A stretch of DNA of 32,000 bases. Source: Nitrosomonas europaea (lineage in GTDB: Bacteria > Pseudomonadota > Gammaproteobacteria > Burkholderiales > Nitrosomonadaceae). The stretch covers positions 30,001 through 62,000 of the forward strand of contig NZ_FUWK01000001.1 of NCBI RefSeq assembly GCF_900167395.1, read 5' to 3'. A program made the position numbers and the translations under genes. The notes under the pieces were generated by a model that was given only the letters and a program-made list of their open reading frames with translations, was not told where the DNA came from and did no database searches. Below, one piece after another: positions 7,582 to 22,135 of this stretch (within the stretch, counting starts at the first letter, position 1; each line of letters opens with the position of its first letter).

Positions 7582-9141
7582 ATGCATTCAGCCATTCTCA
7601 TCCTGGATTTTGGCTCGCAATACACCCGGCTGATTGCCCGGCGCATTCGCGAGACCAATGTTTACTGTGAACTCCATCCCTTTGATGTCAGCCCGCAATT
7701 CATCCGGGAATTTGCACCTATCGGTATTATTCTCTCCGGCGGGCCAGCTTCGACTTTCACTGAGGATGCGCCACGTGTGCCGCAAATCGTGTTCGAGCTG
7801 GGGGTTCCCGTCCTCGGTATTTGTTATGGAATGCAAGCCATGGCAGCTCAGCTCGGTGGAGAAGTGGAAGATGCACAGACGCGTGAATTCGGTTACGCAG
7901 AACTGCTGACTGCGCCGTGCAAGCTGTTCCATGGCATACAGGACCGCATTAACTCCGATGGCAAACCGGCTCTTGACGTCTGGATGAGCCATGGCGACCG
8001 TGTCAACAAACTGCCACCGGGTTTCACTGCCATTGCCTCCAATGCAGCGACTCCCTTCGCTGCCATGGCGGATGAAACGCGCAACTTTTACGGAGTACAG
8101 TTTCACCCTGAAGTCACCCACACACGACAGGGCAAGGCAATTCTCGATCACTTCGTGCACGATATCTGCAGTGCAGGCTATGACTGGAACATGCCTGATT
8201 ACGTGGAAGAAGCCATTGGCCGGATTCGTGCCCGTGTCGGGAATGATAAAGTCGTCCTGGGGCTATCTGGAGGGGTGGATTCATCCGTAGCCGCTGCACT
8301 CATTCATCGTGCCATTGGCGATCAACTGGTATGCGTATTCGTGGACAACGGCCTGCTTCGCCTGAACGAAGCCAAGCAGATCATGGAAACCTTCAGCCGG
8401 AACCTTGCGGTCAATGTCATTTACATCGATGCCGGCAGGCAGTTTCTGGAACAACTGAAAGGAATCACCGACCCTGAACAGAAACGTCGCACCATCGGCC
8501 GTGAGTTCGTGGAAATCTTCCAGCAGGAAGCTGAAAAGATCGAAAATGCAAAATGGCTGGCACAGGGCACCATCTATCCTGATGTCATTGAATCCGCTGG
8601 CAGCCACACCAAGAAAGCAGGCGTTATCAAATCCCACCATAACGTGGGCGGTTTACCGGAAACACTTCATCTCAAACTGCTGGAGCCACTGCGCGAACTG
8701 TTCAAGGATGAAGTACGTGAACTTGGCCTGGCACTGGGATTGCCGCATGATCTGGTGTTCCGCCATCCATTCCCCGGCCCGGGACTGGGTGTCCGTATTC
8801 TGGGAGAAGTCAAATACGAATACACCGAGTTACTGCGTCAGGCTGATGCCATTTTCATCGAAGAACTGAGAAATGCCGGCTGGTACGAAAAAACCTCTCA
8901 GGCATTTGCCGTTTTCCTGCCGATAAAATCAGTTGGCGTCATGGGAGACAATCGCAGTTATGAATATGTAGTCGCCTTACGCGCTGTTCAGACCGAAGAT
9001 TTCATGACCGCACACTGGGCAGAACTGCCCTACACCCTCCTCTCCAGAATCTCAAATCGCATCATCAATGAAATCCGCGGTATCAACCGTGTGGTCTACG
9101 ATATATCAGGCAAACCCCCGGCAACGATCGAGTGGGAGTAG
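7582..9141 (+). CDS. guaA: glutamine-hydrolysing GMP synthase
   Basis: The GATase domain shows [25 protein letters not shown] and QFHPEV. The ATP-PPase P-loop is [11 protein letters not shown], and the C-terminus KPPATIEWE is canonical. Confidence 0.97.
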
Positions 9142-9836
9142 GATTGTTCTTTTAAATTATTGATTTATGTAAAATTAGCAATCAATAAATGATATTTATT
9201 ACATCATCAATGGTGCTTGTTATGGTAGGTGGAGAGCGTGCTATGGCAAGAGTCTCCGATATCATGATCAAGTTCTCCATTCCGCATGATCTTGAGCCCG
9301 ATGCCGAGGTTACAGCACTTGGAGTCCGGTGTGCGGCGTAAACAGCAAATCCGTTTTTAGATAGAGGATAACCCATGCCTGTTCTGCTTTTCGTTCTCTG
9401 GTAGGGTTTGGTAATTTCCTGAGTATAGGGAGCTATGCCAAGTTACAGCCTGAACGAAGACCGCTTGGCTCAGAAAGGACTGGAGAACTGGAACAAACCG
9501 TGGAACAGCCGCGGCAGGCACTGACACGTCAACAGTTTTGGTTTCAGACTTGGGGCAAGAGGTCGTTGACCTGATCTGACGTCAGAGCGGTTCGCTCAGC
9601 AACATCAGAAAAACCCATTTTTAACCCATGGACTCCGTGTCAGCGCCGTACTAGAGCATTCTGCATTTAAGTCCGTGCCCGTGCATATCCGGAATTGAGG
9701 AAGTAATTTCTACATTCAGACTTGAGTATCCTACATCGACTCTATCTAAGTACAGAATGCTCTAATCCCGGGGGCCGGTCATGTCACCGTCATCGGGAAT
9801 CATGATTGCTGCAATAGTCAAGCAAAGAATACCCGT

Positions 9837-12800
9837 GTGATGTCGTCTCTTTCCCAACCCAAGGGCTTAGTATTCGACCTGGAGGTGGTGCCGCCCAAGG
9901 GCAAACAGCCTGCCTGTATTGTGATGGTGGGTGCCTTGCGGCCAGATTCCAGTGCTGAGCTGGAGTTGAAGGTGACTGGAGACCCGTCCTCGGCTCTGCA
10001 GCAACTGGATGCGCTGTCTGAGGGGGCGAGTTTCGTGCTTGGGCACAATGTCATCGCACATGACTTACCCATCTTGCGCGAACATTCTCCCAATATGGCC
10101 CTGCATACTCTGCCAGTCATAGATACGTTGCGTTTATCTCCGTTGGCGTTTCCGCAGAATCCGTATCACCGGCTGGTCAAGGATTACAAACTCATCCGCG
10201 ACAGCCTCAACTCACCCCTGTCCGACTGCCGCTCGACTCTGGTTCTTTTTCAGGATCAACGCCAGGCTTTCACACAGTTGAACGAGAGCAACCAGGCGGA
10301 GCTTCTCTGCTACCAGACGTTGCTGGCGCCGAGTATGAAGGGGAATCTAGGCGCCTTCTTCGCGTCCTTAACTGGGCAGTCTCCGGTATCTGTACCCGAG
10401 CTCAGAACGCTGGTTCCGCAATTGCTGCAAGAGACGGATCCGTCGCAACCGCGGGATTTGAAGGTATGTCGAGCACGATTGGAGCAATTACTCGAAGAAG
10501 ATCTGCAACAGGAGGATCTACACTGGCCGTTGGCCTATGCGTTAGCCTGGCTCCGGGTATCTGGTGGCAACTCGGTGTTGGCACCCTGGGTGCGGCATCA
10601 GTTTCCGGAGGTTGGCCGACTAATTTCCGAACTGCGTGATGCACCGTGTGAGCGAGAGGATTGCCAGTATTGTCAGACGACGCATGACCCACGCCACGAG
10701 CTAAAGCGTTACTTCGGCTTCCCTGATTTTCGCTACGAGCAGCCAGGGGAAAGTCTTCAGCACGATATCGTGCTGGCCGGCATGCGTGGCCAGCATGTAC
10801 TGGCCATCCTGGCGACCGGCGGGGGCAAGTCGCTATGTTATCAATTGCCGGCGTTGAACCGGTTCCATCGTAACGGCAGTCTTACCGTCATCGTTTCGCC
10901 GTTGCAGTCACTGATGAAGGATCAGGTCGACGGACTGCTGGAGCGCAACGTCCAGTGCGCCGCAGCGCTGAATGGCCTGCTTACCATGCCGGAGCGCGCC
11001 GAGGTACTGGAGAAGATCCAGATGGGCGATGTCGGCATTTTGCTTGTGTCGCCCGAGCAGTTCCGCAACAAGGCTTTCCGGCGAGCGATCCGTCAGCGTC
11101 AGGTTGGTGCCTGGATTTTCGATGAGGCGCACTGCCTGTCGAAATGGGGCAGCGACTTTCGGCCAGACTACCTTTATGTGTCCCGCTTCATCCGGGAGTA
11201 CACCGGTGACCAACCGCTGGCGCAGATCGGCTGTTTTACCGCGACGGCCAAGCCCGATGTGCTCGCGGATATTCAGAGCCACTTCAGGGAAAGCCTGGGC
11301 ATTGAATTCAAGGTGTTCCCCGGAGGGCACGAGCGAACCAATCTGCATTTTGACGTGCTGCCCTGCACCAAGGCAGAGAAGTGGTCGCGTACCGATCGCT
11401 TGCTGCACGAGCATCTTGACAGCCAGGAGGGCGGTGCAGTCGTCTTCGTTTCCAGCCGTAAGAGTGCTGAGGAGCTGTCAGACTTCCTGATAGGTCAAGG
11501 CTGGCCTTGCAAGCACTTCCATGCCGGTCTGGAGCCCAACACCAAAACGGATATCCAGGACGACTTCAAAGCAGGACAACTGAGAATCATCGTTGCCACC
11601 AACGCCTTCGGAATGGGCGTGGACAAGGCTGATATCCGTCTCGTCATACATGCCGACATACCGGGATCGCTGGAGAATTACCTGCAGGAGGCGGGCAGAG
11701 CTGGACGTGATCAGGGCGATGCGCGCTGCGTGCTGTTGTACGACCCGCAGGACATCGAAACCCAGTTCGGCATAAGCGAGCGCTCGAAGCTCAGTATTCG
11801 CGACATTCAGCAGATCTTGCGCAAGTTGCGTAACGAGAGCAATCGGCGAAAGGGGGGCAAGTTGGTCATCACAGCGGGTGAAATCCTGTTGGATGATGAT
11901 GTCGATACCAGTTTTTCCGCGGACGAGCGCGATGCAGAAACCAAGGTCGTTACGGCGGTTGCCTGGCTGGAGCGTGGCGATTACCTCAAACGTGAGGAAA
12001 ACCATACACAGATTTTCCCAGCACGACTGGATATGAGTGAGAAAGAGGCCGAGAAGCGCTTGCTGAAAGCCAAGCTGCCGCAGCGTCGATTGGAGGAGTT
12101 CAGGGCTATTTTGCGCTTTCTCTACGGCGCCGATGCTGATGAGCGGGTGAACACCGACCAGTTGATGCAGTTGACCAGTCTGGAGTCGGAGGAGGTTGCC
12201 AGCGCACTCAAACAATTGGAGGAAATGGGGCTGCTGGTCAACGACTCGCAGATCACGCTGTATGTGCGCCACGGTGTGACCGGGGCTTCCAGTCAACGCC
12301 TGCAAAGCTCCCTGGAGTTGGAAAGGGCTTTGCTGCAGCGCTTGCCAGAGCTGGCGTCTGACGCCGGGCAGGGGGAGTGGCAAGATCTGAATCTGCCGGC
12401 ACTGGCCGCTGAGCTCAAGGCGGACACCAGGCAGGGAGATCTCCTGCCGCTCCAGGTGCTGCGCTTGTTGCGCAGCCTGGCCGACGATCATGATGCCAAT
12501 AGCCAGCAGCGCAGCAGCTTCGAGTTACGGCAGCTCAACCGTGATTACCTCAAGTTGCGTATCAAAGGCGGACATTCCTGGCGGCAGATCGAACGTTTCG
12601 GTGAAAAGCGCCGCGCTCTGGCTGGCGTATTGATGGAGTTCCTGATCGGTAAGCTGCCCCCCGGCTCGCGCAACAAGGATCTGCTGGTTGAGACGAGTTT
12701 TGGCGAGTTGGTCAAGGCATTGGAGTCTGATCTTGAGCTGCCCCATCTCATCGCTCCGGATCAGCGCCGCAAAGCAGTTGAGCATGTGCTGCTCTATCTG

Positions 12801-14963
12801 CATCGGCAGGACATTTTGACCCTCAACCACGGCATGACGGTCATGCGTCGAGCCATGACCATCGAGGTCAAAAAGGAAGACAAGCGCAAGACCTTCCTCA
12901 AGGAGGATTACCTGCGACTCGACGAGCACTACCGTGAGAAGCGTATCCAGGTTCATGTGATACATGAGTATGCCGAAGTGGCGCTGAAGGAGATGGCCGA
13001 AGCGTTGCGCTTGGTACTGGATTACTTCACTGACTCCAAGCAGGCATTCATCAAGCGCCATTTTGCCGGGAGGGAAGATGTGCTCAAGCTGGCGACCAGC
13101 GAGGCGTCATGGAAGTCGATCATCGAGTCGCTGAGCACTACTCAGAAACTGATCGTCGCCGACGATGATGACATCAACCGGCTGGTGCTGGCCGGGCCGG
13201 GCTCCGGCAAGACACGTGTGATCGTGCACCGCATTGCTTACCTGCTGCGGGTGCGGCGAGTGCCGGCGACTAGCATCGTGGCGCTGACCTTCAACCGCCA
13301 TGCAGCGAACGAGATCCGTAAACGGCTGTTGGCCCTGGTCGGGGCCGATGCTTACGGTGTCAGCGTTCTGACCTATCACAGCATGGCCATGCGTTTGACC
13401 GGCACCCGCTTTGAGCGAGGTGATACGGTTGACGAACGAGCCCTCAAGCGGGTACTGAGCGATGCTGTCGAGTTGCTGGAAGGCAAGCGCAATGTTGAGG
13501 GCGAGGACAACCTACGCGAGCAGTTACTGCGCGGATACCGTTACATCCTGGTTGACGAATACCAGGACATCGACGATCTGCAATACCGCCTGGTCAGTGC
13601 TCTGGCCGGACGGCACGCGGAAGAGGATGGCCGGTTGTGCATCATGGCAGTAGGTGACGATGACCAGAACATCTATGCCTGGCGCGATACCAACAACCGT
13701 TATATTGAGCGTTTCCGCGAGGACTATGAGGCGTCGATCAGCTTCCTGGTCGATAACTACCGTTCTTCCCTGCGTATCATTGAAGCGGCCAACCAACTCA
13801 TTGGCCAGAATTCGGCTCGTCTGAAAGAGGCCAATCCCATCCGGATCGACAGAGCACGGCAAGAGCTGCCTGCCGGTGGGCTATGGGAAGAGCAGGATAA
13901 ACAGCGGAAAGGCCGGGTACTGAGATTGCTGATCGACCCGAGCGACCGTGAGCGCGGCAATCTGCAGGCTCAGGCGGCCATGCTGGAGTTGGAGCGGTTG
14001 CTGGTGCTCGAGCAAGGGAGTTGGAACGGCTGTGCGGTTCTGGCTCGGACGCACCGCTATCTGTGGCCAATCCAGGCCTGGTGTGAGCAGCACGATATTC
14101 CTTATTTCCTGGCAGCAGACAAGGAAACGGCGTTACCCATTACTCGGCAGCGCAGTTTTGTGGCTGCAATCGACTCTCTGCGAGAAATCGAAAGCGCTTT
14201 GTGCGCGGCTGACGCATGGCTGCGTTTGTCGGGTAGCAATCAACTGGTGGAAGCCGAGTGGAAGAGTTTTTTCCAGACGGCCTTTGAGCAAATGCGAGGA
14301 GAGTTGGGCGACTGCCAACTTGGCAGTGGTGCCTTGATCGACTGGCTGTACGACTACGCCCGTGAATTGCGCCAACAGCCGAAGGAAGGTCTCTATCTTG
14401 GCACCGTGCATTCGGCCAAAGGGCTGGAGTTCCGCCATGTCGTTCTGCTGGATGGTGGCTGGAGCACGCAGGTCGATACCCTGGCCGATGAGCGACGTTT
14501 GTACTACGTAGGTATGACACGAGCCGAACAGACTCTGGCGTTGTGCGAGTTTGCTGACGGCAACCCATTTAGCCGCAGCCTGATGAAGGGGGTTCAGCAA
14601 CACGCGTTCCAGGGACAACCTCTTCCTGAGCTGGAGCTGCGTTTTCAGCAGCTTACGCTGAAGGAGATCGACATTAGTTTTGCCGGTCGTCAATTACCGC
14701 ATGCCCGGATACACAAGGCGATTGAGGCGCTTCGCGAGGGAGATCCGCTGACGTTGAAGGAAGAGGCTGGCCGCTATCAACTGCTCGACAGGCAAGGCAA
14801 CGTAGTAGGGCGAACCGCCAAGTCGTTCCAGCCACAGATTGGCTTCGCTCACTGTGAAGTTGCGGTAGTCATAGTGCGTTTTGCCGAGGATAGTGAGGAG
14901 CAATATAGGGATTTGAATAAGTGTGAGCGCTGGGAGGTGGTTGTGCCGCGAGGGAGAGGGTAG
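9837..14963 (+). CDS. 1708-aa fusion protein: DEDD-type 3'-5' exonuclease-like domain + RecQ-type SF2 helicase + unassigned middle region + UvrD/Rep-type SF1 helicase + small C-terminal domain
   Basis: This is a single uninterrupted ORF starting at GTG 9837 or ATG 9840. Exonuclease-like motifs are FDLE (9873-9884), GHNVIAHD (10041-10064) and HRLVKD (10167-10184). The RecQ core shows ATGGGKS (10812-10832), DEAH (11121-11132), FTATA, ATNAFGMGVDK and QEAGRAGRD (11685-11711). The UvrD core shows GPGSGKT (13194-13214), ALTFNRHAANE, DEYQD (13554-13568), VGDDDQNIYAWR, NYRSS, VHSAKGLEF (14406-14432) and YYVGMTRA (14502-14525). Confidence 0.9.
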   Translation: MMSSLSQPKGLVFDLEVVPPKGKQPACIVMVGALRPDSSAELELKVTGDPSSALQQLDALSEGASFVLGHNVIAHDLPILREHSPNMALHTLPVIDTLRLSPLAFPQNPYHRLVKDYKLIRDSLNSPLSDCRSTLVLFQDQRQAFTQLNESNQAELLCYQTLLAPSMKGNLGAFFASLTGQSPVSVPELRTLVPQLLQETDPSQPRDLKVCRARLEQLLEEDLQQEDLHWPLAYALAWLRVSGGNSVLAPWVRHQFPEVGRLISELRDAPCEREDCQYCQTTHDPRHELKRYFGFPDFRYEQPGESLQHDIVLAGMRGQHVLAILATGGGKSLCYQLPALNRFHRNGSLTVIVSPLQSLMKDQVDGLLERNVQCAAALNGLLTMPERAEVLEKIQMGDVGILLVSPEQFRNKAFRRAIRQRQVGAWIFDEAHCLSKWGSDFRPDYLYVSRFIREYTGDQPLAQIGCFTATAKPDVLADIQSHFRESLGIEFKVFPGGHERTNLHFDVLPCTKAEKWSRTDRLLHEHLDSQEGGAVVFVSSRKSAEELSDFLIGQGWPCKHFHAGLEPNTKTDIQDDFKAGQLRIIVATNAFGMGVDKADIRLVIHADIPGSLENYLQEAGRAGRDQGDARCVLLYDPQDIETQFGISERSKLSIRDIQQILRKLRNESNRRKGGKLVITAGEILLDDDVDTSFSADERDAETKVVTAVAWLERGDYLKREENHTQIFPARLDMSEKEAEKRLLKAKLPQRRLEEFRAILRFLYGADADERVNTDQLMQLTSLESEEVASALKQLEEMGLLVNDSQITLYVRHGVTGASSQRLQSSLELERALLQRLPELASDAGQGEWQDLNLPALAAELKADTRQGDLLPLQVLRLLRSLADDHDANSQQRSSFELRQLNRDYLKLRIKGGHSWRQIERFGEKRRALAGVLMEFLIGKLPPGSRNKDLLVETSFGELVKALESDLELPHLIAPDQRRKAVEHVLLYLHRQDILTLNHGMTVMRRAMTIEVKKEDKRKTFLKEDYLRLDEHYREKRIQVHVIHEYAEVALKEMAEALRLVLDYFTDSKQAFIKRHFAGREDVLKLATSEASWKSIIESLSTTQKLIVADDDDINRLVLAGPGSGKTRVIVHRIAYLLRVRRVPATSIVALTFNRHAANEIRKRLLALVGADAYGVSVLTYHSMAMRLTGTRFERGDTVDERALKRVLSDAVELLEGKRNVEGEDNLREQLLRGYRYILVDEYQDIDDLQYRLVSALAGRHAEEDGRLCIMAVGDDDQNIYAWRDTNNRYIERFREDYEASISFLVDNYRSSLRIIEAANQLIGQNSARLKEANPIRIDRARQELPAGGLWEEQDKQRKGRVLRLLIDPSDRERGNLQAQAAMLELERLLVLEQGSWNGCAVLARTHRYLWPIQAWCEQHDIPYFLAADKETALPITRQRSFVAAIDSLREIESALCAADAWLRLSGSNQLVEAEWKSFFQTAFEQMRGELGDCQLGSGALIDWLYDYARELRQQPKEGLYLGTVHSAKGLEFRHVVLLDGGWSTQVDTLADERRLYYVGMTRAEQTLALCEFADGNPFSRSLMKGVQQHAFQGQPLPELELRFQQLTLKEIDISFAGRQLPHARIHKAIEALREGDPLTLKEEAGRYQLLDRQGNVVGRTAKSFQPQIGFAHCEVAVVIVRFAEDSEEQYRDLNKCERWEVVVPRGRG

Positions 14964-15300
14964 GAGCAACGCTGGATAGATCGCATGCGGATTTTTTGGG
15001 AGTTGGCTATAAGGCAAAATCTTTCATACGGCAATCGACCTGCACTGAATGGAGAGTGGATTGAAAATGGCAAGGAAGCGCAGAAGTAGAGGTAAGCCCA
15101 ATTTATCTGCCGGATTGACGTGGTTTAATGAAACCACATCAAGAGGATTCAAGACAACGATCAGACATGGGAGCGCTGGCGCGCCCGTGGCGATCATCAG
15201 CTACTACATGCCAGAGCGATGGAGCTTGATCCGGCGTTTGATCTCACGCAATACGCGATTTTCAACCAGCACCTCGACTGAGGCTGCGCCCCACGCATAA

Positions 15301-16158
15301 CGAGACAAACTCGAAGACATCGACGAGCAGATCAATGCGGGAATGACGCGAGAATACTTCATCGGTACCGTGCTGGTGTCGCCGACTGATCAGAAAAACC
15401 ATTATGAAGTCATAGATGGCCAGCAGCGCCTGACTACGTTCTTCCTGTTGCTGTGCGCTCTCAAGCATCTGTTTCAGGGTGAGCCGCAGCAGCAAGCCGT
15501 CAGTGGCTTGATCTCGACCAGCTACACGGACAACGATGGGGAAACGCGGATCAGCCTGAAGCTGGAGCCGCGCTACGAGAACGCGGGCGAAGTCATCACC
15601 AAGCTGGTGGAACTCGACGCCGACCCGCAGGTTGTGCGCGTAGGCATTCAGTCATCGAGCATCGCCAGCTTCGGGTCGCTGGAAAACCTGGTCAATGCCT
15701 ACGGCACGCTGTACCGATACCTGAAGGACAACTACGACAGCCCGGCCAAGCTGAAGAAATATTGGGGCTACCTGGCGAACGACGTAGTATTCATCCAGAT
15801 TTCCACGGACGTGAGCAGCGCCCTAAAAATCTTCGAGACGATCAACGAGCGCGGCGTCGGCCTCAACCCGATGGATTTGCTGAAGAACCTGCTGTTCACG
15901 CAGGTGGGGCAAGCGCAATTCACCCAGCTCAAGGATGAATGGAAAAAAATCACCAGGCCATTGGAGAAAGGGAAGGAAAAGCCGCTGTTCGACCATTTCG
16001 TGATGCAGTTGGAGAACTTTCTCTTCTACTACATCTTCACCAAGACGCCGACCAGAGATATGGAGCGCAGCTTTTCCCAATGGGCCAATGAACTGCGCGC
16101 GATCGCTGACGCTGCCGAATGTAGGTGCCACAACCAATGGCAAGGTATTGACTCCTGA
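15301..16158 (+). pseudogene. truncated DUF262 (ParB/Srx-fold, GmrSD / SspE / DndB-like) gene remnant
   Basis: The ORF 15343..16158 contains the DUF262 signature YFIGTVLV...YEVIDGQQRLTTFFLL. The upstream FQRxYxW-type block is missing. The same frame is closed by TAA at 15298-15300 just before KLEDIDEQINAG. There is no DUF1524/His-Me nuclease half. The last ~15 codons look like junction junk, and GC drops abruptly after about 16150. Confidence 0.55.
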
Positions 16159-16362
16159 TCTATGGAAAGGGCAATCTTGGCTCTATATGGTATTTTTCGT
16201 GGTTCGAGCGGTCGGTCTATGATCAATAGACTGATTCAAAAGGATTTTTACTGATTATTGATGACCGAGTGGATCCAGAAGAAATTAGACCACGACAGTC
16301 TTATACAGCTACAATAATTGATCTTGATAACGGTACCACCTTACTAACGGTTCATTACGTTT

Positions 16363-18447
16363 ATGAAAAATCCTCTGGAGGGTAGTGTCATACGGCGCGT
16401 GATGGTAGGCACCGATCGCTCCGAAACTGCCGACCAGACTGTTCAGTGGGCTGCCGGACTAGCGGACCGCTACGACGCAGAGCTATTCATAGTACAGGTA
16501 ATAGTACCGAAATATCCATCCGCCACAGAATTCGGTGAATCCGAACAAACAAGTGCTGTGGCTGCCAACAACGACCTGGCACACTTTGCGCGGCAGATTG
16601 CCGGAGAACGTGGCCATGCCCTGGTCGTCATTAATGCTGATCCGGCATTGGCGATCGTCCATGCCGCTGAGCAGGAAGCAATCGATGTCCTGGTGGTTGG
16701 CAATCTTGGCATGGCAGGTCGAAAAGAATTTTTGCTCGGTAACATACCGAACCGCATCAGTCACAATGCTCACTGTACTGTAATTATTGTAAATGCTGCG
16801 CACTCTGCCGATGAGCGTGCACCGCACTCGGTGCGAGCTTCCCTGTCTAATGATGAAATCCCGTCTTTTAAGCCTCGACTGGTAGCACGCGCTACGCATA
16901 TCGCAGCCGTGATGGCAAAACATGGGCTCACAGAGCTGTTCAGCCAATCCGACCCAGATATATCCATCCGCCGCCAGCAGGCCAGGCGCTTACGTGGCGC
17001 CCTGGAAGAGCTGGGCCCGATATTCTCGAAACTCGGGCAAGTGTTATCAACCCGTCCGGATCTCCTTCCAATCGAATACATCGAAGAACTTGTACTGTTG
17101 CAGTCTCGCGTGCCGCCAATGACTGAGAGCGAGGTCGTCCGGGTCTCTGAACAGGAACTGGGTGTCCCGTGGGAGGATGTATTCAAGTCATTTGACCCGA
17201 ACCCTCTCGCCGCCGGCACAATCGCGCAGGTCCATCGTGCGACGCTCGAAACCGGTGACCGGGTCGTTGTCAAAGTTCAGCGACCCACTGCTCGTGCTGA
17301 TATCGAACAGGATCTCGCTCTGTTCGAGATGTTTGCGGAGAAAGTCGGGAAGCGTCCTGCGCTCAATCAGGTGATCAATATGGAGGATGTGTTCAAGCAC
17401 CTTTCCACCTCGCTCCATCGTGAACTCGACTTTCGCCAGGAGGCCAACAATATTGAGCGGATGCGGACAGTGCTCGCAGACTATGATCGTCTTGCCGTCC
17501 CCAGCATACACTGGGATCTGTCCACATCCCGATTACTGGTGATGGAAGAAATCCAGGGCATTCCGATCAAGCAGGCGCCAGCCGGTCCAGAGCGTATCCA
17601 GGCCGCTCGCCAACTGTTGGAGAGCTACTACAAACAGATCATCGTCGATGGTTTCTTCCATGCCGACCCTCACCCAGGCAACCTGATGTGGTGGAAGGAC
17701 TGCATTTATTTTCTCGATTTCGGAATGGTTGGCGCGGTAGGAGCCGATCTTCGCGAGCATCTTTTGTTAATGCTGATGGCTCTGTGGCAGGAAGATGCCG
17801 GGTTTCTCACCGATGTCACATTGATGATGACGAACGCTGTCAATAGCAACGATTTCGATGTGGCTCAATTCCAGAGCGAGATCGGGGAGGTGATGGCAAA
17901 ATATCGGGCCGCCTCGCTTGCTGAGATGCAGATCGGGCCGCTTCTGCAAGAAATGAGCACCGTCTCGTTACGACACGGGGTGCCGCTGCCGGCTTCGCTC
18001 ACGCTTGCCACCAAAGCACTTGCGCAGGTACAGCTGGCGACTGCTGAGCTTGATCCGACGCTCGATCCTTACGACGTGGCAGGCAAGTATCTGATGCGTT
18101 TGATGGTCAAACGCATCGGCGCCGCGCTCAATCCAAAAACATTCGTGTATCAGTCGCAGAAGTTGAAAGTACGGACTCTGCGCGTGATCGAAGCACTCGA
18201 AAACCTCGTCGGTGTCCGCCCTGGCGGTCCAAAACTTGTAGTGAACTTCAAGGCTAATTCGCTGGAGAATATCGTGCGTCACACAGGACGACGGCTGGCG
18301 CTCGGCCTGACCGCTGCGGCAAGTATTCTGACCAGCGGACTCACGACCATGTCTACGGCTGTTGCCGAGTGGGTACCAGTAACATTCGGGGCTGTTGCAG
18401 GTCTGCTGACTCTTGGCCTGGTTATCGATCTGCTGCGAGGACGTTAA
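16363..18447 (+). CDS. universal stress protein (UspA) domain fused to an ABC1/UbiB-family atypical kinase, with a C-terminal membrane anchor
   Basis: The USP domain (about aa 11-144) carries the nucleotide-binding motif G-x2-G-x9-G-N, read as GNLGMAGRKEFLLGN (16699-16743). The ABC1 motifs are LGPIFSKLGQVLSTRPDLLP, AAGTIAQVHRA, VVKVQRP, ELDFRQEANN, HADPHPGN (17659-17682) and DFG (17716-17724). A hydrophobic tail spans aa 644-690. Confidence 0.85.
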   Translation: MKNPLEGSVIRRVMVGTDRSETADQTVQWAAGLADRYDAELFIVQVIVPKYPSATEFGESEQTSAVAANNDLAHFARQIAGERGHALVVINADPALAIVHAAEQEAIDVLVVGNLGMAGRKEFLLGNIPNRISHNAHCTVIIVNAAHSADERAPHSVRASLSNDEIPSFKPRLVARATHIAAVMAKHGLTELFSQSDPDISIRRQQARRLRGALEELGPIFSKLGQVLSTRPDLLPIEYIEELVLLQSRVPPMTESEVVRVSEQELGVPWEDVFKSFDPNPLAAGTIAQVHRATLETGDRVVVKVQRPTARADIEQDLALFEMFAEKVGKRPALNQVINMEDVFKHLSTSLHRELDFRQEANNIERMRTVLADYDRLAVPSIHWDLSTSRLLVMEEIQGIPIKQAPAGPERIQAARQLLESYYKQIIVDGFFHADPHPGNLMWWKDCIYFLDFGMVGAVGADLREHLLLMLMALWQEDAGFLTDVTLMMTNAVNSNDFDVAQFQSEIGEVMAKYRAASLAEMQIGPLLQEMSTVSLRHGVPLPASLTLATKALAQVQLATAELDPTLDPYDVAGKYLMRLMVKRIGAALNPKTFVYQSQKLKVRTLRVIEALENLVGVRPGGPKLVVNFKANSLENIVRHTGRRLALGLTAAASILTSGLTTMSTAVAEWVPVTFGAVAGLLTLGLVIDLLRGR

Positions 18448-18739: not shown

Positions 18740-21700
18740 ATGATGAATGATCGTGTATCAGCATGGCTGGATAGCCTTGGTCTCACTGTATATCACGAGT
18801 CGTTTGAGCACAATGCGATCACTTGGGATGTCCTGCCCGAGCTGAATGAAGACGATCTGGAGGCGCTGGGTGTCTTACTGGGGCATCGGAAAATACTCTT
18901 GCGTGCAATCGCGCAATTGTCACAGAACACTGCAAGTCCAGGCCCGGGATCTATACTCGCTGGCGTTATTCCGGAAGAACAATCATTCCCTCTCGAACGA
19001 AATCAGGCAGAACGTCGCCAGTTAACGGTAATGTTTTGCGATCTTGTGGATTCGACGGCACTATCCTGCCGGCTGGACCCTGAAGACCTCCAGGATGTGA
19101 TCCGGCAATTTTTAGTTGCCTGCAGCCAGGCGATTGGCCGACTCAATGGCTATGTCGCAAAATATATGGGAGATGGAATACTGGCTTATTTTGGGTACCC
19201 TCATGCTCACGAAAATGATGCGGAACGAGCCGTACATGCCGGCCTCGCTATTCTGGATACAGTGAAGGTATTTAATCTGAACAATCCCCATCCACAGCTT
19301 AGTATTGCTGCTCGAATCGGGATCGCTACCGGTCAAGTCGTAGTCGGTGAACTAATGGGGCAGGACACTGCCACGGAACGGTCAGTGTTCGGTGAAACGC
19401 CGAATCTTGCCGCCCGCCTCCAGGCACTGGCTAAACCCGGTCAATTGATCATCGATCTGGCGACAAAACGGCTTGTCGGAAATGAATTCGAGTTCTCGGA
19501 TCTTGGTGCTTCCTCGCTGAAAGGATTCGATACACCTGTCCACGCCTGGCAAGTTCTGAGTATCAAGCCATCAGCCAGCCGATTTGAATCCTATCGATCC
19601 GGCCAGTTAACCAAATTCGTAGGCAGAGAACAGGAGATTTCACTCCTGTTGGGCCGTTGGCATGAGGCCGTCAGCGGTGAAGGACAGGTCGTGCTCCTAA
19701 GCGGTGAAGCCGGTATCGGAAAATCGAGAATCGCCTGTAGCTTGCGTGACCACCTTGCAGATGAACGACACCAGGTAATTCAATTTCAATGTTCACCGTA
19801 CCACATTAATACAGCGCTCTATCCGGTGATCAATTTTTTGCGACAGGCAGCAGGATTCGCAAATCAGGACAGTGCCGAGACACAACTGAACAAGCTCGAT
19901 GCCATGGCCGCCAAAAGCGGGATTGATGATCCGAAGACGGTTTCATTGCTGGCCGATCTGCTCTTGATCCGGGGAGATCATCGCTACCCGCCGCTCAATG
20001 TGTCATCCGAAAAACGCAAGGACATGACGCTGGAAGCGCTCGTGCAGCATCTGCAAAAGCTGGCTGGTCATTGCCCCCTGTTGTTCATTGTGGAAGATGC
20101 CCATTGGCTTGATCCGACCACGCTGGAACTCATAACACGAATCATTGGCCATATCCGGCAGATGCGCATGTTGCTGCTAATCACATCTCGACCCGGCTTC
20201 AAACCGGTATGGGCGGAATATAGTTATGTGACATCCCTGACGCTCAGTCGGCTTCCACGCCGACATAGTGCTGAGCTCATTACGACGATGGCAGGAGGAA
20301 AAGTGCTTCCACCCGAAGTACAGCAGGCAATTCTGGCCAAGGCTGATGGCATACCTCTTTATATCGAAACGTTGACGGAAAATGTGCTTGGATCAGGGCT
20401 GCTGACTGAGGGAAACGATTCATTTACCTTGCAGGGTCCAGTAAAGAAATTGCCCATTCCGGACAGTCTGCAAGCCTTGCTCATGGAACGGGTGGATCGG
20501 TTAGGATCAGCCAGGGAAATTGTCCAGGCCGGTGCAGCAATAGGGCGTGAATTCACCTACGAGCTGCTGCAGGCCACTGTTGAAGTGCCGGACAGCGAGT
20601 TGAAGGATGCACTTGATCTGTTTGTTGCTTCCGGACTCGTTCTGCAAGAGGGCGAGATCCCTCTTGCGACATACTACTTTAAGCATGCACTGGTCCAGGA
20701 AGCTGCCTACAGCATGCTGCCCAGGAAACTCCGGCGAGCACTTCATGCCCGCATTGCCAAGGCCCTGGAGAGCCGGTTCTCCGAACGGGTAAGCATGGAA
20801 CCGGAACTCCTGGCTTATCACTATGAGCAGGCAGGATTAGCCGGTCCGGCCGTTGAATATTACCATCGTGCGGCTCGTTGCGATGTGGAACGATCAGCCA
20901 GTATCGAAGCACTCAATCATTTTAATCGGGCGCTCGAGTTGCTAAAGGAACTGCCGCAAGGCCCGGAGCGAGATACCCTGGAGCTGGAGCTCCTGATTGC
21001 ACGCGGAGTCCCGTTGCTGTCCGTCAAAGGGTATGCATCTGACGAAATGGAACATAATTATCGAAGAGCGAAGGATTTGTTACAGGAGCACAGCAGTTTC
21101 GTACATCAGTTCCGAGCCATTCGGGGATTATGGGTCTTTCATCTGGTCAGAGGGCAACTCGCCAATGCGCGCGGCCTGGCCGAAGATCTCCTCGCGCTGG
21201 CTCGCCGCGAGCAAAGCCCGGAGCTACTGATTGAAGCTCACCATGCTTTGGGCGCGACCTGCTTCTACCTTGGCCAGTTTGACGAAGCCAGAACCCATTT
21301 GTTCGCCGCAAAATCTCTCGATGACTCGAATCAACATGACTCACAGGTTTTCTTCTACGGCCAGGATTCCGGAATAACCGCGCGGATTCTGCTGGCCAGG
21401 ACATTATGGATATTGGGTGAAGTCGATCAAGCTGAGACGCTGGCGTTGGAGACGATGGGCATGGCGAGAGAGTTGGAGCACCCATTCACTCGTGTTTTTA
21501 CTCTCATTTTCCTTGCCTGGATCTATTCCGGTGCCCACAATGCGGAGAAAACGCTGGAAATCACCAATGAAGCGATCGCAATTTCAACACAATACTCATT
21601 TGAATTGGGGTTGGCGTGGGCGACCGCCTCGCAAGGCTGGGCGTTGGCCGACACCGGGCAAGAGGAAGGTATCGCCAAGTTAATTGACGGGCTTTCCGCC

Positions 21701-22135
21701 ACCCGGGCCACAGGAGCGCGTATCCACGACTCTTGTACCTTGGCGTTGCTGGCGGAAGTTTATTTGCGTAGAAATAGAATTGACGAAGGCCTGGCTGCCA
21801 TTGAGGAAGCGCAGAAGCTTGCTGTCACTGGGGGAGCATTATTCTGGCAAGCGGAATTGTTTCGACTGAAAGGCGAACTGCTGCAGGAACAGTCCGGCGA
21901 ATCAGTCCAGGAAGCAGAAGAGTGTTTGTGTGAAGCCTTAAAGATTGCGCAGGATCAGCATGCAACAATGCTTGAACTTCGAGCTGCCACGAGCCTGGCT
22001 AAACTTTGGAGAAAACTCAATAAAATAGATAATGCCAAATACATCTTAAATGATGTGTACTTCAGATTCAGCGAATGCACCGACAACCTCGACTTGATTG
22101 AAGCGAAAACAGTTCTTGAACAACTTGGTGTATGA
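18740..22135 (+). CDS. SAM domain + class III adenylate/guanylate cyclase + AAA_16/STAND NTPase + TPR array protein
   Basis: A SAM-like domain lies at aa 5-60 (VSAWLDSLGLTVYHESFEHNAITWDVLPELNEDDLEALGV). The cyclase motifs are RRQLTVMFCDLVDST, KYMGDGILAYFG, RIGIATGQVVVGE and FGETPNLAARL. Walker A is GEAGIGKS (19703-19726) and Walker B is LLFIVEDAHWLD. The C-terminal ~440 aa are TPR-like helical repeats. No HTH output domain is present. Confidence 0.9.
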   Translation: MMNDRVSAWLDSLGLTVYHESFEHNAITWDVLPELNEDDLEALGVLLGHRKILLRAIAQLSQNTASPGPGSILAGVIPEEQSFPLERNQAERRQLTVMFCDLVDSTALSCRLDPEDLQDVIRQFLVACSQAIGRLNGYVAKYMGDGILAYFGYPHAHENDAERAVHAGLAILDTVKVFNLNNPHPQLSIAARIGIATGQVVVGELMGQDTATERSVFGETPNLAARLQALAKPGQLIIDLATKRLVGNEFEFSDLGASSLKGFDTPVHAWQVLSIKPSASRFESYRSGQLTKFVGREQEISLLLGRWHEAVSGEGQVVLLSGEAGIGKSRIACSLRDHLADERHQVIQFQCSPYHINTALYPVINFLRQAAGFANQDSAETQLNKLDAMAAKSGIDDPKTVSLLADLLLIRGDHRYPPLNVSSEKRKDMTLEALVQHLQKLAGHCPLLFIVEDAHWLDPTTLELITRIIGHIRQMRMLLLITSRPGFKPVWAEYSYVTSLTLSRLPRRHSAELITTMAGGKVLPPEVQQAILAKADGIPLYIETLTENVLGSGLLTEGNDSFTLQGPVKKLPIPDSLQALLMERVDRLGSAREIVQAGAAIGREFTYELLQATVEVPDSELKDALDLFVASGLVLQEGEIPLATYYFKHALVQEAAYSMLPRKLRRALHARIAKALESRFSERVSMEPELLAYHYEQAGLAGPAVEYYHRAARCDVERSASIEALNHFNRALELLKELPQGPERDTLELELLIARGVPLLSVKGYASDEMEHNYRRAKDLLQEHSSFVHQFRAIRGLWVFHLVRGQLANARGLAEDLLALARREQSPELLIEAHHALGATCFYLGQFDEARTHLFAAKSLDDSNQHDSQVFFYGQDSGITARILLARTLWILGEVDQAETLALETMGMARELEHPFTRVFTLIFLAWIYSGAHNAEKTLEITNEAIAISTQYSFELGLAWATASQGWALADTGQEEGIAKLIDGLSATRATGARIHDSCTLALLAEVYLRRNRIDEGLAAIEEAQKLAVTGGALFWQAELFRLKGELLQEQSGESVQEAEECLCEALKIAQDQHATMLELRAATSLAKLWRKLNKIDNAKYILNDVYFRFSECTDNLDLIEAKTVLEQLGV

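Follow-up and report, generated by a model that had tools for sequence, protein, structure and literature searches.

Here we describe a single gene on the forward strand of a 32,000-nt stretch of Nitrosomonas europaea DNA (RefSeq assembly GCF_900167395.1, contig NZ_FUWK01000001.1, positions 30,001 to 62,000; hereafter the window), the product of which joins a predicted DEDDh exonuclease, a RecQ-type helicase core of superfamily 2 (SF2) and a UvrD-type helicase core of superfamily 1A (SF1A). Helicase–nuclease enzymes are central to DNA repair and to bacterial immunity, and this one is encoded in an accessory segment between guaA and a truncated restriction-like remnant (Table 1). An earlier note on this DNA, made from the sequence alone, had claimed one uninterrupted frame at 9837..14963 (1708 codons plus stop); the list of open reading frames (ORFs) and the translation confirm the frame, with the likely start one codon later. 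An in-frame GTG at 9837 would give 1,708 amino acids (aa), but homologues are 1,707 aa long and their first residue corresponds to the second codon of the frame, so that the ATG at 9840 is probably the real start and the product 1,707 aa, judging from these relatives. Residue numbers below follow the 1,708-aa numbering of the earlier note, counted from the GTG.

Table 1. Features of the fusion gene and its surroundings in the window.
Feature	Position (nt)	Strand	Residues (aa)	Basis
guaA	7582..9141	+		Pfam; protein identical to N. europaea CAD84005
5' flank moving with the gene	9798..9839	+		Homology from 9798 (P. aeruginosa) and from 9770 (Alcaligenaceae)
Exonuclease–RecQ–UvrD fusion gene, complete	9840..14963	+	1,707 from ATG 9840	ORF list and translation
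Predicted DEDDh (DnaQ-fold) 3'-5' exonuclease domain	9861..10211	+	~9-125	Residue conservation, DinG profile match, AlphaFold/Foldseek
Helical linker, closing with C271-x4-C276-x2-C279-x3-H283 (nt 10647-10685)	10212..10691	+	~126-285	High-pLDDT helices, conservation
RecQ-type SF2 helicase core	10692..11837	+	~286-667	Pfam, TIGR00614, PDB profile matches, motifs
Middle region	11838..13112	+	~668-1092	Sub-threshold Pfam winged helix-turn-helix, AlphaFold, weak Foldseek
UvrD/Rep/PcrA-type SF1A helicase core	13113..14546	+	~1093-1570	Pfam, NCBIfam below equivalog cut-offs, motifs
C-terminal tail	14547..14960	+	~1571-1708	Few conserved residues: H1626, W1699
3' flank common to P. aeruginosa, including the 17-codon sngA stub	14964..15118	+		blastn, alignment, tblastn
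Truncated GmrSD_N/DUF262 restriction-like remnant	15343..16158	+		Pfam GmrSD_N profile positions 39-199 only

Domain architecture of the fusion protein

The protein divides into five parts: the predicted exonuclease, a helical linker with a Cys-Cys-Cys-His (CCCH) cluster, the RecQ-type core, a middle region of ~425 aa, and the UvrD-type core with a small tail. The residues proposed in the earlier note as an exonuclease active site (D14/E16, D76, H111/D116) are backed by several lines of evidence. In 121 close homologues D14, E16, H70/N71/D76, H111 and D116 show little or no variation; the same candidates, including G69-H-N...D76, are (nearly) invariant in 58 diverse N-terminal fragments of ~40-47% identity, and the catalytic candidates are likewise (nearly) invariant in 66 full-length homologues of 36-73% identity. 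A family profile searched against PDB matched the Exo II region of the Staphylococcus aureus DinG exonuclease (8zef) at E = 5.8e-4. This is the domain's only sequence link: with the limit set at E <= 10, Pfam gave no family (e.g. RNase_T) for aa 1-288, and PDB returned nothing to a search with the single sequence. The AlphaFold model of aa 1-300 has a mean predicted local distance difference test score (pLDDT) of 91.8 and a predicted template modelling score (pTM) of 0.88, and with it Foldseek retrieved mainly DEDD/DnaQ-fold exonucleases, with probabilities of ~1.0 for most and E-values from 1.7e-3 to 4e-2. These include DinG, RICE1, Nibbler, a Cas2-DnaQ domain, ISG20, Pan2, REXO2, and the proofreading domains of T7 and family-B polymerases. 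Thus the model has a DnaQ fold and the sequence carries the Exo I D-x-E, Exo II D and Exo III H-x4-D elements, while no curated model matches; the H-x4-D motif assigns the domain to the DEDDh class. On this modelling it is a predicted DEDDh exonuclease with DinG as its nearest structural relative.

The three linker cysteines, C271, C276 and C279, do not vary among the homologues compared, and most of these also conserve H283; the cluster as a whole is thus (nearly) invariant in the family. It lies just ahead of the RecQ core and may be a zinc knuckle; if so, it may substitute for the missing zinc-binding domain of RecQ.

The earlier note had also proposed complete sets of RecQ SF2 and UvrD/Rep SF1A motifs, and both are borne out by Pfam and NCBIfam matches, with the Walker A lysines correctly placed and conserved. 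In the RecQ-type core, Pfam recognizes DEAD at aa 307-475 and Helicase_C at aa 522-625, the score for TIGR00614 (recQ_fam), 280.4 bits, exceeds the cut-off of 219.8, and the family profile finds RecQ structures in PDB at E = 1e-25; Walker A TGGGKS (K331), the DEAH box (429-432) and motif VI QEAGRAGRD are conserved. In the UvrD-type core, the matches span aa 1104-1570 and comprise UvrD-helicase (PF00580, 141 bits), AAA_19 (PF13245), UvrD_C (PF13361) and UvrD_C_2 (PF13538), all above cut-offs, and the conserved motifs are Walker A AGPGSGKT (K1125), VDEYQD, GDDDQNIY, YRS and motifs V and VI. The models for the named housekeeping enzymes are missed by a wide margin: TIGR01389 scores 324 bits against 640 and PRK11057 244 against 1015 for RecQ, and the UvrD, PcrA, Rep and helicase IV equivalogs reach 120-183 bits against cut-offs of 543-1168. 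The two regions are thus true RecQ-type and true UvrD-type cores, but, with all equivalog scores so far below the cut-offs, the protein is no orthologue of the housekeeping enzymes.

What lies between and behind the cores is less easily classified. RecQ_Zn_bind, RQC and HRDC have no Pfam match in the middle region, searched to E <= 10, and aa 640-1100 contain no cysteine at all. AlphaFold gives the middle region a mean pLDDT of 73, with its core better predicted; the Pfam winged helix-turn-helix matches are sub-threshold, and the Foldseek matches (E >= 0.046) are mostly to winged-helix proteins. The region is probably an array of winged-helix domains, a reading that we hold at low confidence because the Pfam and Foldseek matches are weak and the model moderate. 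Searched on its own, it retrieved only 23 proteins, mostly fragments. The C-terminal tail (~138 aa) has no significant match in Pfam or in the PDB profile search.

The fusion of three modules in one polypeptide, as the earlier note described it, is genuine, and it is the standard form of a large family that recurs across many phyla. That it might be an artefact, either a chimera of two genes or a decaying pseudogene, is a reading to which we give practically no weight. A chimera, named beforehand in the earlier note as something that could refute it, is excluded by the identical sequence in independent assemblies, by the wide occurrence of the architecture and by full-length homologues in hundreds of species: positions 9000-16500 match one complete N. 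europaea chromosome at 100% identity and a second, that of ATCC 19718, at 99.96%. Decay is contradicted by intact motifs and a ratio of nonsynonymous to synonymous substitution (dN/dS) of ~0.08. In favour of an artefact, one Logan assembly of N. europaea (L096, 12259-17381) has a single-base indel that splits the product into 1498 + 223 aa, and a Nostoc plasmid copy lies in three ORFs. The indel could be an assembly error or a genuine inactivating mutation. The shorter calls in ATCC 19718 (1642 aa) and CM135170 (1663 aa), considered as possible signs of decay, turned out to be only start-codon choices on identical or near-identical DNA.

The Nostoc copy, on plasmid pNPUN02 of Nostoc punctiforme (L102, 7797-12815), is a distant one, its three adjacent same-strand ORFs lying 25-37 nt apart. 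We considered this split into RecQ, UvrD and '3'-5' exonuclease' pieces as support for the exonuclease call and rejected it: the RefSeq label '3'-5' exonuclease' sits on the C-terminal UvrD fragment, a potentially misleading annotation.

Distribution, selection and recent transfer

In a scan of one genome per species, relatives of the gene were encoded in at least 591 stretches from many phyla. Among the best 80 of these, on which the extent of alignment was judged, most align over nearly the entire query except where a contig edge ends them; their sources are Gamma- and Betaproteobacteria (including Neisseria), Desulfobacterota, Verrucomicrobiota, Acidimicrobiia, Bradymonadia, Zetaproteobacteria and Nitrospira. 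Full-length homologues with 65-98% identity number more than 120 and occur in Pseudomonas, Stutzerimonas, Halopseudomonas, Alcaligenaceae, Pseudocitrobacter, Rosenbergiella, Azoarcus and Azospira. An exhaustive search that used only the N-terminal domain (E <= 1e-3) retrieved 1,116 cluster representatives, the complete ones 1,680-1,910 aa long. In no case was the domain seen in a different architecture. Proteins of 890-1,380 aa that looked like a variant lacking the UvrD module proved to be truncations, frameshifts or internal deletions. In one incomplete protein (P0367, 1,312 aa) ~400 additional residues at the N-terminus precede the exonuclease domain.

The catalytic motifs of all three enzymes are kept across the family. 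Between the Nitrosomonas and Pseudomonas copies dN/dS is 0.085 overall, 0.03-0.13 for the modules and 0.03 for the RecQ core; every module is under purifying selection. Family members are carried by 22 large plasmids or chromids. The whole family is absent from 50,697 phage records, and in IMG/VR it occurs on 14 of 2.9 million contigs; ten neighbours scanned on these contigs are cellular or resemble restriction-modification (RM) genes, including a ResIII and methylase pair. Complete E. coli genomes, searched by megablast with the Pseudocitrobacter gene, yielded no copy.

In databases the family goes by the label 'RecQ family ATP-dependent DNA helicase', which conceals two thirds of the protein. 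As a sequence the protein is thus not new, being common under a label that names only part of it; what is new is its description as an entity, and its architecture is a variant within the known class of helicase–nuclease enzymes.

The Nitrosomonas copy has a composition of its own. The fusion gene has a GC content of 57.4% (68% at third codon positions), against ~50% in the flanks, and the P. aeruginosa copy, PA14_RS11730, has 57.9%; composition departs from the flanks in Pseudocitrobacter as well. The copies of N. europaea and P. aeruginosa share 93% protein and 88% nucleotide identity and fall in the same 90%-identity cluster. This identity, together with a GC content like that of the P. aeruginosa copy and above that of the Nitrosomonas flanks, suggests from the sequences a recent transfer between bacterial classes. 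By blastn, nucleotide homology to the P. aeruginosa copy is confined to 9798-15118, and since it stops at these two positions, the transferred unit is the gene with ~40 bp upstream and ~155 bp downstream (~5.3 kb).

In P. aeruginosa the helicase lies 105 bp upstream of the Shango system on the same strand, and a trace of that order survives in Nitrosomonas. Within the ORF at 15049-15300, positions 15067-15117 encode a stub of sngA, which specifies a TerB_N protein: 15 of 17 residues are identical to SngA residues 1-17 by tblastn (MARKRRSRGKPNLSAGL in Nitrosomonas, MARKRRGRGKPNLSGGL in P. aeruginosa). Because this stub ends the shared flank, the Nitrosomonas copy must descend from a P. aeruginosa-like helicase–Shango order. 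One P. aeruginosa locus (L005) has a clean deletion of Shango, with its breakpoint within ~8 bp of the point where the Nitrosomonas homology ends, and the start of sngA may be a recombination hotspot. As a structured RNA or terminator the shared 3' flank folds no better than shuffled sequence (z = 0.68).

The guaA locus and the neighbours of other copies

The earlier note had placed the gene, GC-richer than its flanks, in an accessory island, and both parts of that description agree with what we see: the accessory segment extends over ~9142-16362, as everything else in the window belongs to core metabolism. Proteins encoded in the flanks have identical counterparts in N. europaea ATCC 19718 (guaA, CAD84005; guaB, CAD84006; Usp-ABC1, CAD84002; cyclase, CAD84001). 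In comparison with strains that hold another island, homology ends at 9137, 4 bp before the guaA stop codon. At this same junction other N. europaea (L097; L101, 11557 onward) carry a tyrosine integrase, AlpA, an AAA_25 protein, RepC, a FitA-like protein, TrbL, the ptaRNA1 toxin and ars genes, an integrase island that we take to resemble the GIsul2 family. In Pseudocitrobacter faecalis (L009, 9753-15207) the helicase stands alone between the guaA terminator and yfgG, which is also the gene junction used in Nitrosomonas; it has no mobility gene beside it and no visible terminal repeat. Since other N. europaea strains and Pseudocitrobacter hold different or solitary inserts there, the 3' end of guaA is an insertion hotspot. 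No att-type direct repeat of the guaA 3' end was found at the edge of the island.

The spacer between guaA and the transferred unit (9142-9797, ~650 bp) has no notable ORF, RNA family or tRNA and no similarity to the neighbours of other copies; remnants of Fic, Shedu, AbiEi or an integrase were looked for in it and not found, and Rfam and tRNA searches of the window gave no matches. Downstream, a decayed DUF262 gene had been reported, and it is indeed a truncated GmrSD_N fragment, which lacks the start of the domain and the entire C-terminal half. The PADLOC models HEC-06 and Orf5 match it only over profile positions ~53-274 of ~560, and an in-frame stop lies upstream (15298-15300).

Across 43 species, 128 neighbouring ORFs contain no Pfam family more than twice, and thus the gene has no conserved partner. 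These bulk scans give counts by family and not defence tallies by locus; among the ORFs are HipA, DarT, AbiEi, GajB, MkoB, a type III methylase, PD-T4-6, DzbA, mad6, PDC-S01 and ABC-3C components. Annotated contexts show the company at individual loci. In P. aeruginosa, PA14_RS11730 has Shedu on one side and Shango on the other within core defence hotspot 1 (cDHS1), where there is also a giant Hhe-like protein. MmeI-type RM, GmrSD and Tn7-like genes are found in Azospira, ABC-3C/Lamassu-like genes in Zoogloeaceae and AbiE in Alcaligenaceae, and Pseudomonas LAIL14 has SIR2-HerA, AAA_15/21, HNH, PD-(D/E)XK and KAP genes. A Thiothrix plasmid carries type I-D CRISPR and a Nostoc plasmid a methylase and helicase pair, and N. 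europaea itself has remnants (the Shango stub and DUF262). Two further Pseudomonas loci have only toxin–antitoxin genes (ParE in one, RES-Xre in the other), and the Pseudocitrobacter and Stutzerimonas contexts show no defence genes.

The only mention of the gene that we found in the literature is that of Johnson et al. 2023 (PMC10250203), and the gene order given there agrees with our P. aeruginosa loci L001-L004.

Known systems and possible function

The earlier note could assign the protein to no named repair protein or defence system, and PADLOC, the NCBIfam equivalogs and the literature are all without a fit. PADLOC v2 has no model for the whole protein: the models for DpdF, PsyrT and GajB match its generic cores. 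Because the best score is 343 bits on a 1,708-aa protein and covers helicase cores only, no PADLOC model represents the family. To our knowledge, no enzyme described so far has motors of both SF2 and SF1 together with a proofreading-type exonuclease on a single chain.

Likeness to the eukaryotic Werner helicase (WRN), which the earlier note had raised, holds for the order of modules and is otherwise an analogy. Both proteins have an N-terminal 3'-5' exonuclease of the DEDD superfamily followed by a RecQ SF2 helicase, and the RecQ core matches structures of the WRN helicase at E ~1e-12. The WRN exonuclease, however, is of the RNase D type (DEDDy), whereas that of the fusion protein is predicted to be DEDDh and DinG-like; the fusion protein lacks RQC and HRDC, and WRN has no second, UvrD-type motor. 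The two fusions almost certainly arose independently. DinG of S. aureus and Bacillus subtilis is the best profile and structural match (8zef/9ii8) and likewise places a DEDDh exonuclease N-terminal to an SF2 ATPase, but its motor is XPD/Rad3-like and it has neither a UvrD module nor a large middle region; moreover, DinG is a conserved chromosomal gene and the fusion gene an island gene.

RecBCD, AddAB and AdnAB also combine two ATP-driven motors with a nuclease in one machine, and they process DNA ends and destroy phage DNA. They are multi-subunit enzymes with SF1 motors only and PD-(D/E)XK nucleases, and the two motors of RecBCD have opposite polarity, whereas in the fusion protein one motor is of SF2 and the other of SF1A, the direction expected of each is 3'-5', and a predicted DEDDh exonuclease shares their single chain. 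With Gabija, Hachiman, Nhi, Cas3, Druantia DruE and Hna it shares, on genomic evidence, the habitat of defence islands, and the coupling of a translocase to a nuclease. None of these joins two helicase superfamilies, and their nucleases are of the OLD/TOPRIM, HD, PD-(D/E)XK and PLD types. Gabija and Hachiman need a separate partner gene, while the fusion gene has no conserved partner; for Gabija in particular, the GajB models reach ~173 bits on the UvrD core only, there is no GajA-like neighbour in the window, and no conserved neighbour was seen in the 43 species.

PsyrTA/RqlHI and mycobacterial RqlH are, like the fusion protein, non-canonical RecQ relatives without the standard RecQ C-terminal domains. 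The PADLOC PsyrT model scores 274 bits over aa 284-667 only; PsyrT/RqlH are ~690 aa long, lack both the exonuclease and the UvrD module and have an antitoxin gene beside them, and no conserved small gene adjoins the fusion gene. The DpdF model of the Dpd system (NF041063) scores 188 bits against a cut-off of 550, and no dpd genes occur in the window. Shango is an operon of TerB, ATPase and DEAD-helicase genes, and the fusion helicase, its neighbour in P. aeruginosa, is none of the three.

What, then, might the protein do? Our preferred reading, to which we assign a probability of about 0.5, is that it acts alone, as a single-gene helicase–nuclease defence against phages or other mobile DNA. 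The defence role would follow from genomic context, and here the view taken in the earlier note, that the context favours defence or conflict over housekeeping, is strengthened: the family is patchy and non-syntenic in distribution, where ubiquitous and syntenic core genes had been named beforehand as the refuting outcome, it occurs in defence islands and on large plasmids, and the Nitrosomonas copy combines a composition unlike that of its flanks with 93% identity across classes. Intact motifs, purifying selection on every module and the absence from phage genomes speak for the reading too. That a single gene suffices is suggested by the ~5.3-kb extent of the transfer, the lack of a conserved partner and the solitary insertion in Pseudocitrobacter.

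By analogy with the biochemistry of the RecQ and UvrD families, both motors would move 3' to 5' and unwind DNA at the expense of ATP, and the exonuclease, by analogy with DEDDh enzymes, would remove nucleotides from free 3' ends. The protein could load on structures that foreign DNA exposes (3' tails, forks, D-loops, rolling-circle intermediates), possibly with the help of the middle region. Unwinding followed by degradation of the released 3'-ended strands would then block replication of the invader, as in Cas3, Gabija, Hachiman, Nhi and RecBCD. A single DNA end would not let both motors travel inward, their polarity being the same, and we favour the speculation that one would work on each arm of a fork or bubble, with nascent strands being stripped; alternatively, and equally speculatively, one motor may be a sensor or switch for the nuclease, like the ATPase domain in S. 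aureus DinG.

Several points weigh against this defence reading. The exonuclease call comes with modest E-values (5.8e-4 by profile, 1.7e-3 by Foldseek) and a blank Pfam result. The middle and C-terminal regions, which may be the seat of specificity, are without a firm fold assignment, and what we say of the substrate (DNA, RNA or R-loops) and of the cooperation between motors is pure inference. Recognisable defence genes lie within 10 kb in eight of the 12 annotated contexts, a raw count not set against a null model, and the other four have no recognisable defence system, two of them containing toxin–antitoxin pairs only. Literature searches found no characterisation of the family, and the helicase was left out when Shango was defined as a system of three genes that is active when cloned without it (Johnson et al. 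2023, PMC10250203).

Should the protein serve the host's own DNA instead, it would be an accessory genome-maintenance enzyme: a mobile repair or recombination helicase–nuclease, functionally analogous to WRN or a single-chain alternative to RecQ/RecJ or RecBCD, that rescues stalled forks, processes ends or removes R-loops and resides in islands because it is dispensable and mobile. The best-known members of all three module families are repair enzymes, the closest structural neighbour, DinG, is a replication-stress factor, several copies lie among ordinary metabolic genes with at most a toxin–antitoxin pair nearby, and strong purifying selection fits any useful function. We nevertheless consider this unlikely, given the patchy, non-syntenic distribution and recent inter-class transfer, the recurrence beside defence systems and in a defined defence hotspot of P. 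aeruginosa, the scores far below the RecQ, UvrD, PcrA and Rep equivalog cut-offs, and the missing RQC and HRDC. Distinctly unlikely, in our judgement, is a selfish gene of mobile elements, working in element replication, transfer or stabilisation or in counter-defence against host nucleases. The solitary copies are intact and under purifying selection without any mobility genes, no integrase, relaxase, replication or transposition gene is consistently linked to the family, and phages lack it; such a role would, on the other hand, suit the 22 large plasmids or chromids, the conjugation genes (TrbM, TraI_2) near some loci and the Tn7-like genes near one, the occupation of the integration hotspot at the guaA 3' end in two hosts, and the precedent of polyvalent proteins of conjugative elements, which are known to join SF1 and SF2 helicases.

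The tight spacing upstream of Shango on the same strand in P. aeruginosa (105 bp), and the first 17 sngA codons retained in Nitrosomonas, raise a further reading: the helicase might be part of a multi-gene system, for example a Shango accessory, and be non-functional alone in Nitrosomonas after loss of its partner. This we rate as improbable. Shango was published as three genes and is active when cloned without the helicase, in P. aeruginosa L005 the helicase persists although Shango has been cleanly deleted, no neighbour family occurs more than twice in 43 species, and the Nitrosomonas copy is without decay. As for the stronger form of the stand-alone defence reading, namely that the family is a new, widespread single-gene immune system in which an SF2 RecQ motor, an SF1A UvrD motor and a DEDDh effector share one polypeptide and work by a mechanism possibly unlike those of known systems, we offer it only tentatively, as somewhat less probable than not. 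An example of such a mechanism would be stripping, as above, at the replication forks or bubbles of a phage, the exonuclease destroying the 3' ends set free.

An intact copy is present in the model strain P. aeruginosa PA14, in the best-studied defence hotspot, so that the function is directly testable. Were defence to prove true, a compact single-gene module would be added to the known repertoire, along with a natural experiment in the cooperation of motors of the same polarity; were repair to prove true, bacteria would hold a horizontally spreading functional analogue of the Werner helicase.

Some neighbouring genes are noted here in their own right. Large ORFs next to the fusion gene were compared with it as possible paralogues and showed no similarity; in P. 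guineae (L018, 15143-20281) and a member of the Methylococcales (L040, 15698-21739) the helicase is followed by an unrelated, very large ORF of 1,712 and 2,013 aa, respectively. Within the window, 18740-22135 encodes a protein of 1,131 aa that combines SAM, adenylate/guanylate cyclase, AAA_16 (STAND-like) and TPR domains and gives generic matches to the PADLOC model PycC (Pycsar cyclase). As it is identical across Nitrosomonas genomes, this is probably a core signalling protein that lies outside the island.

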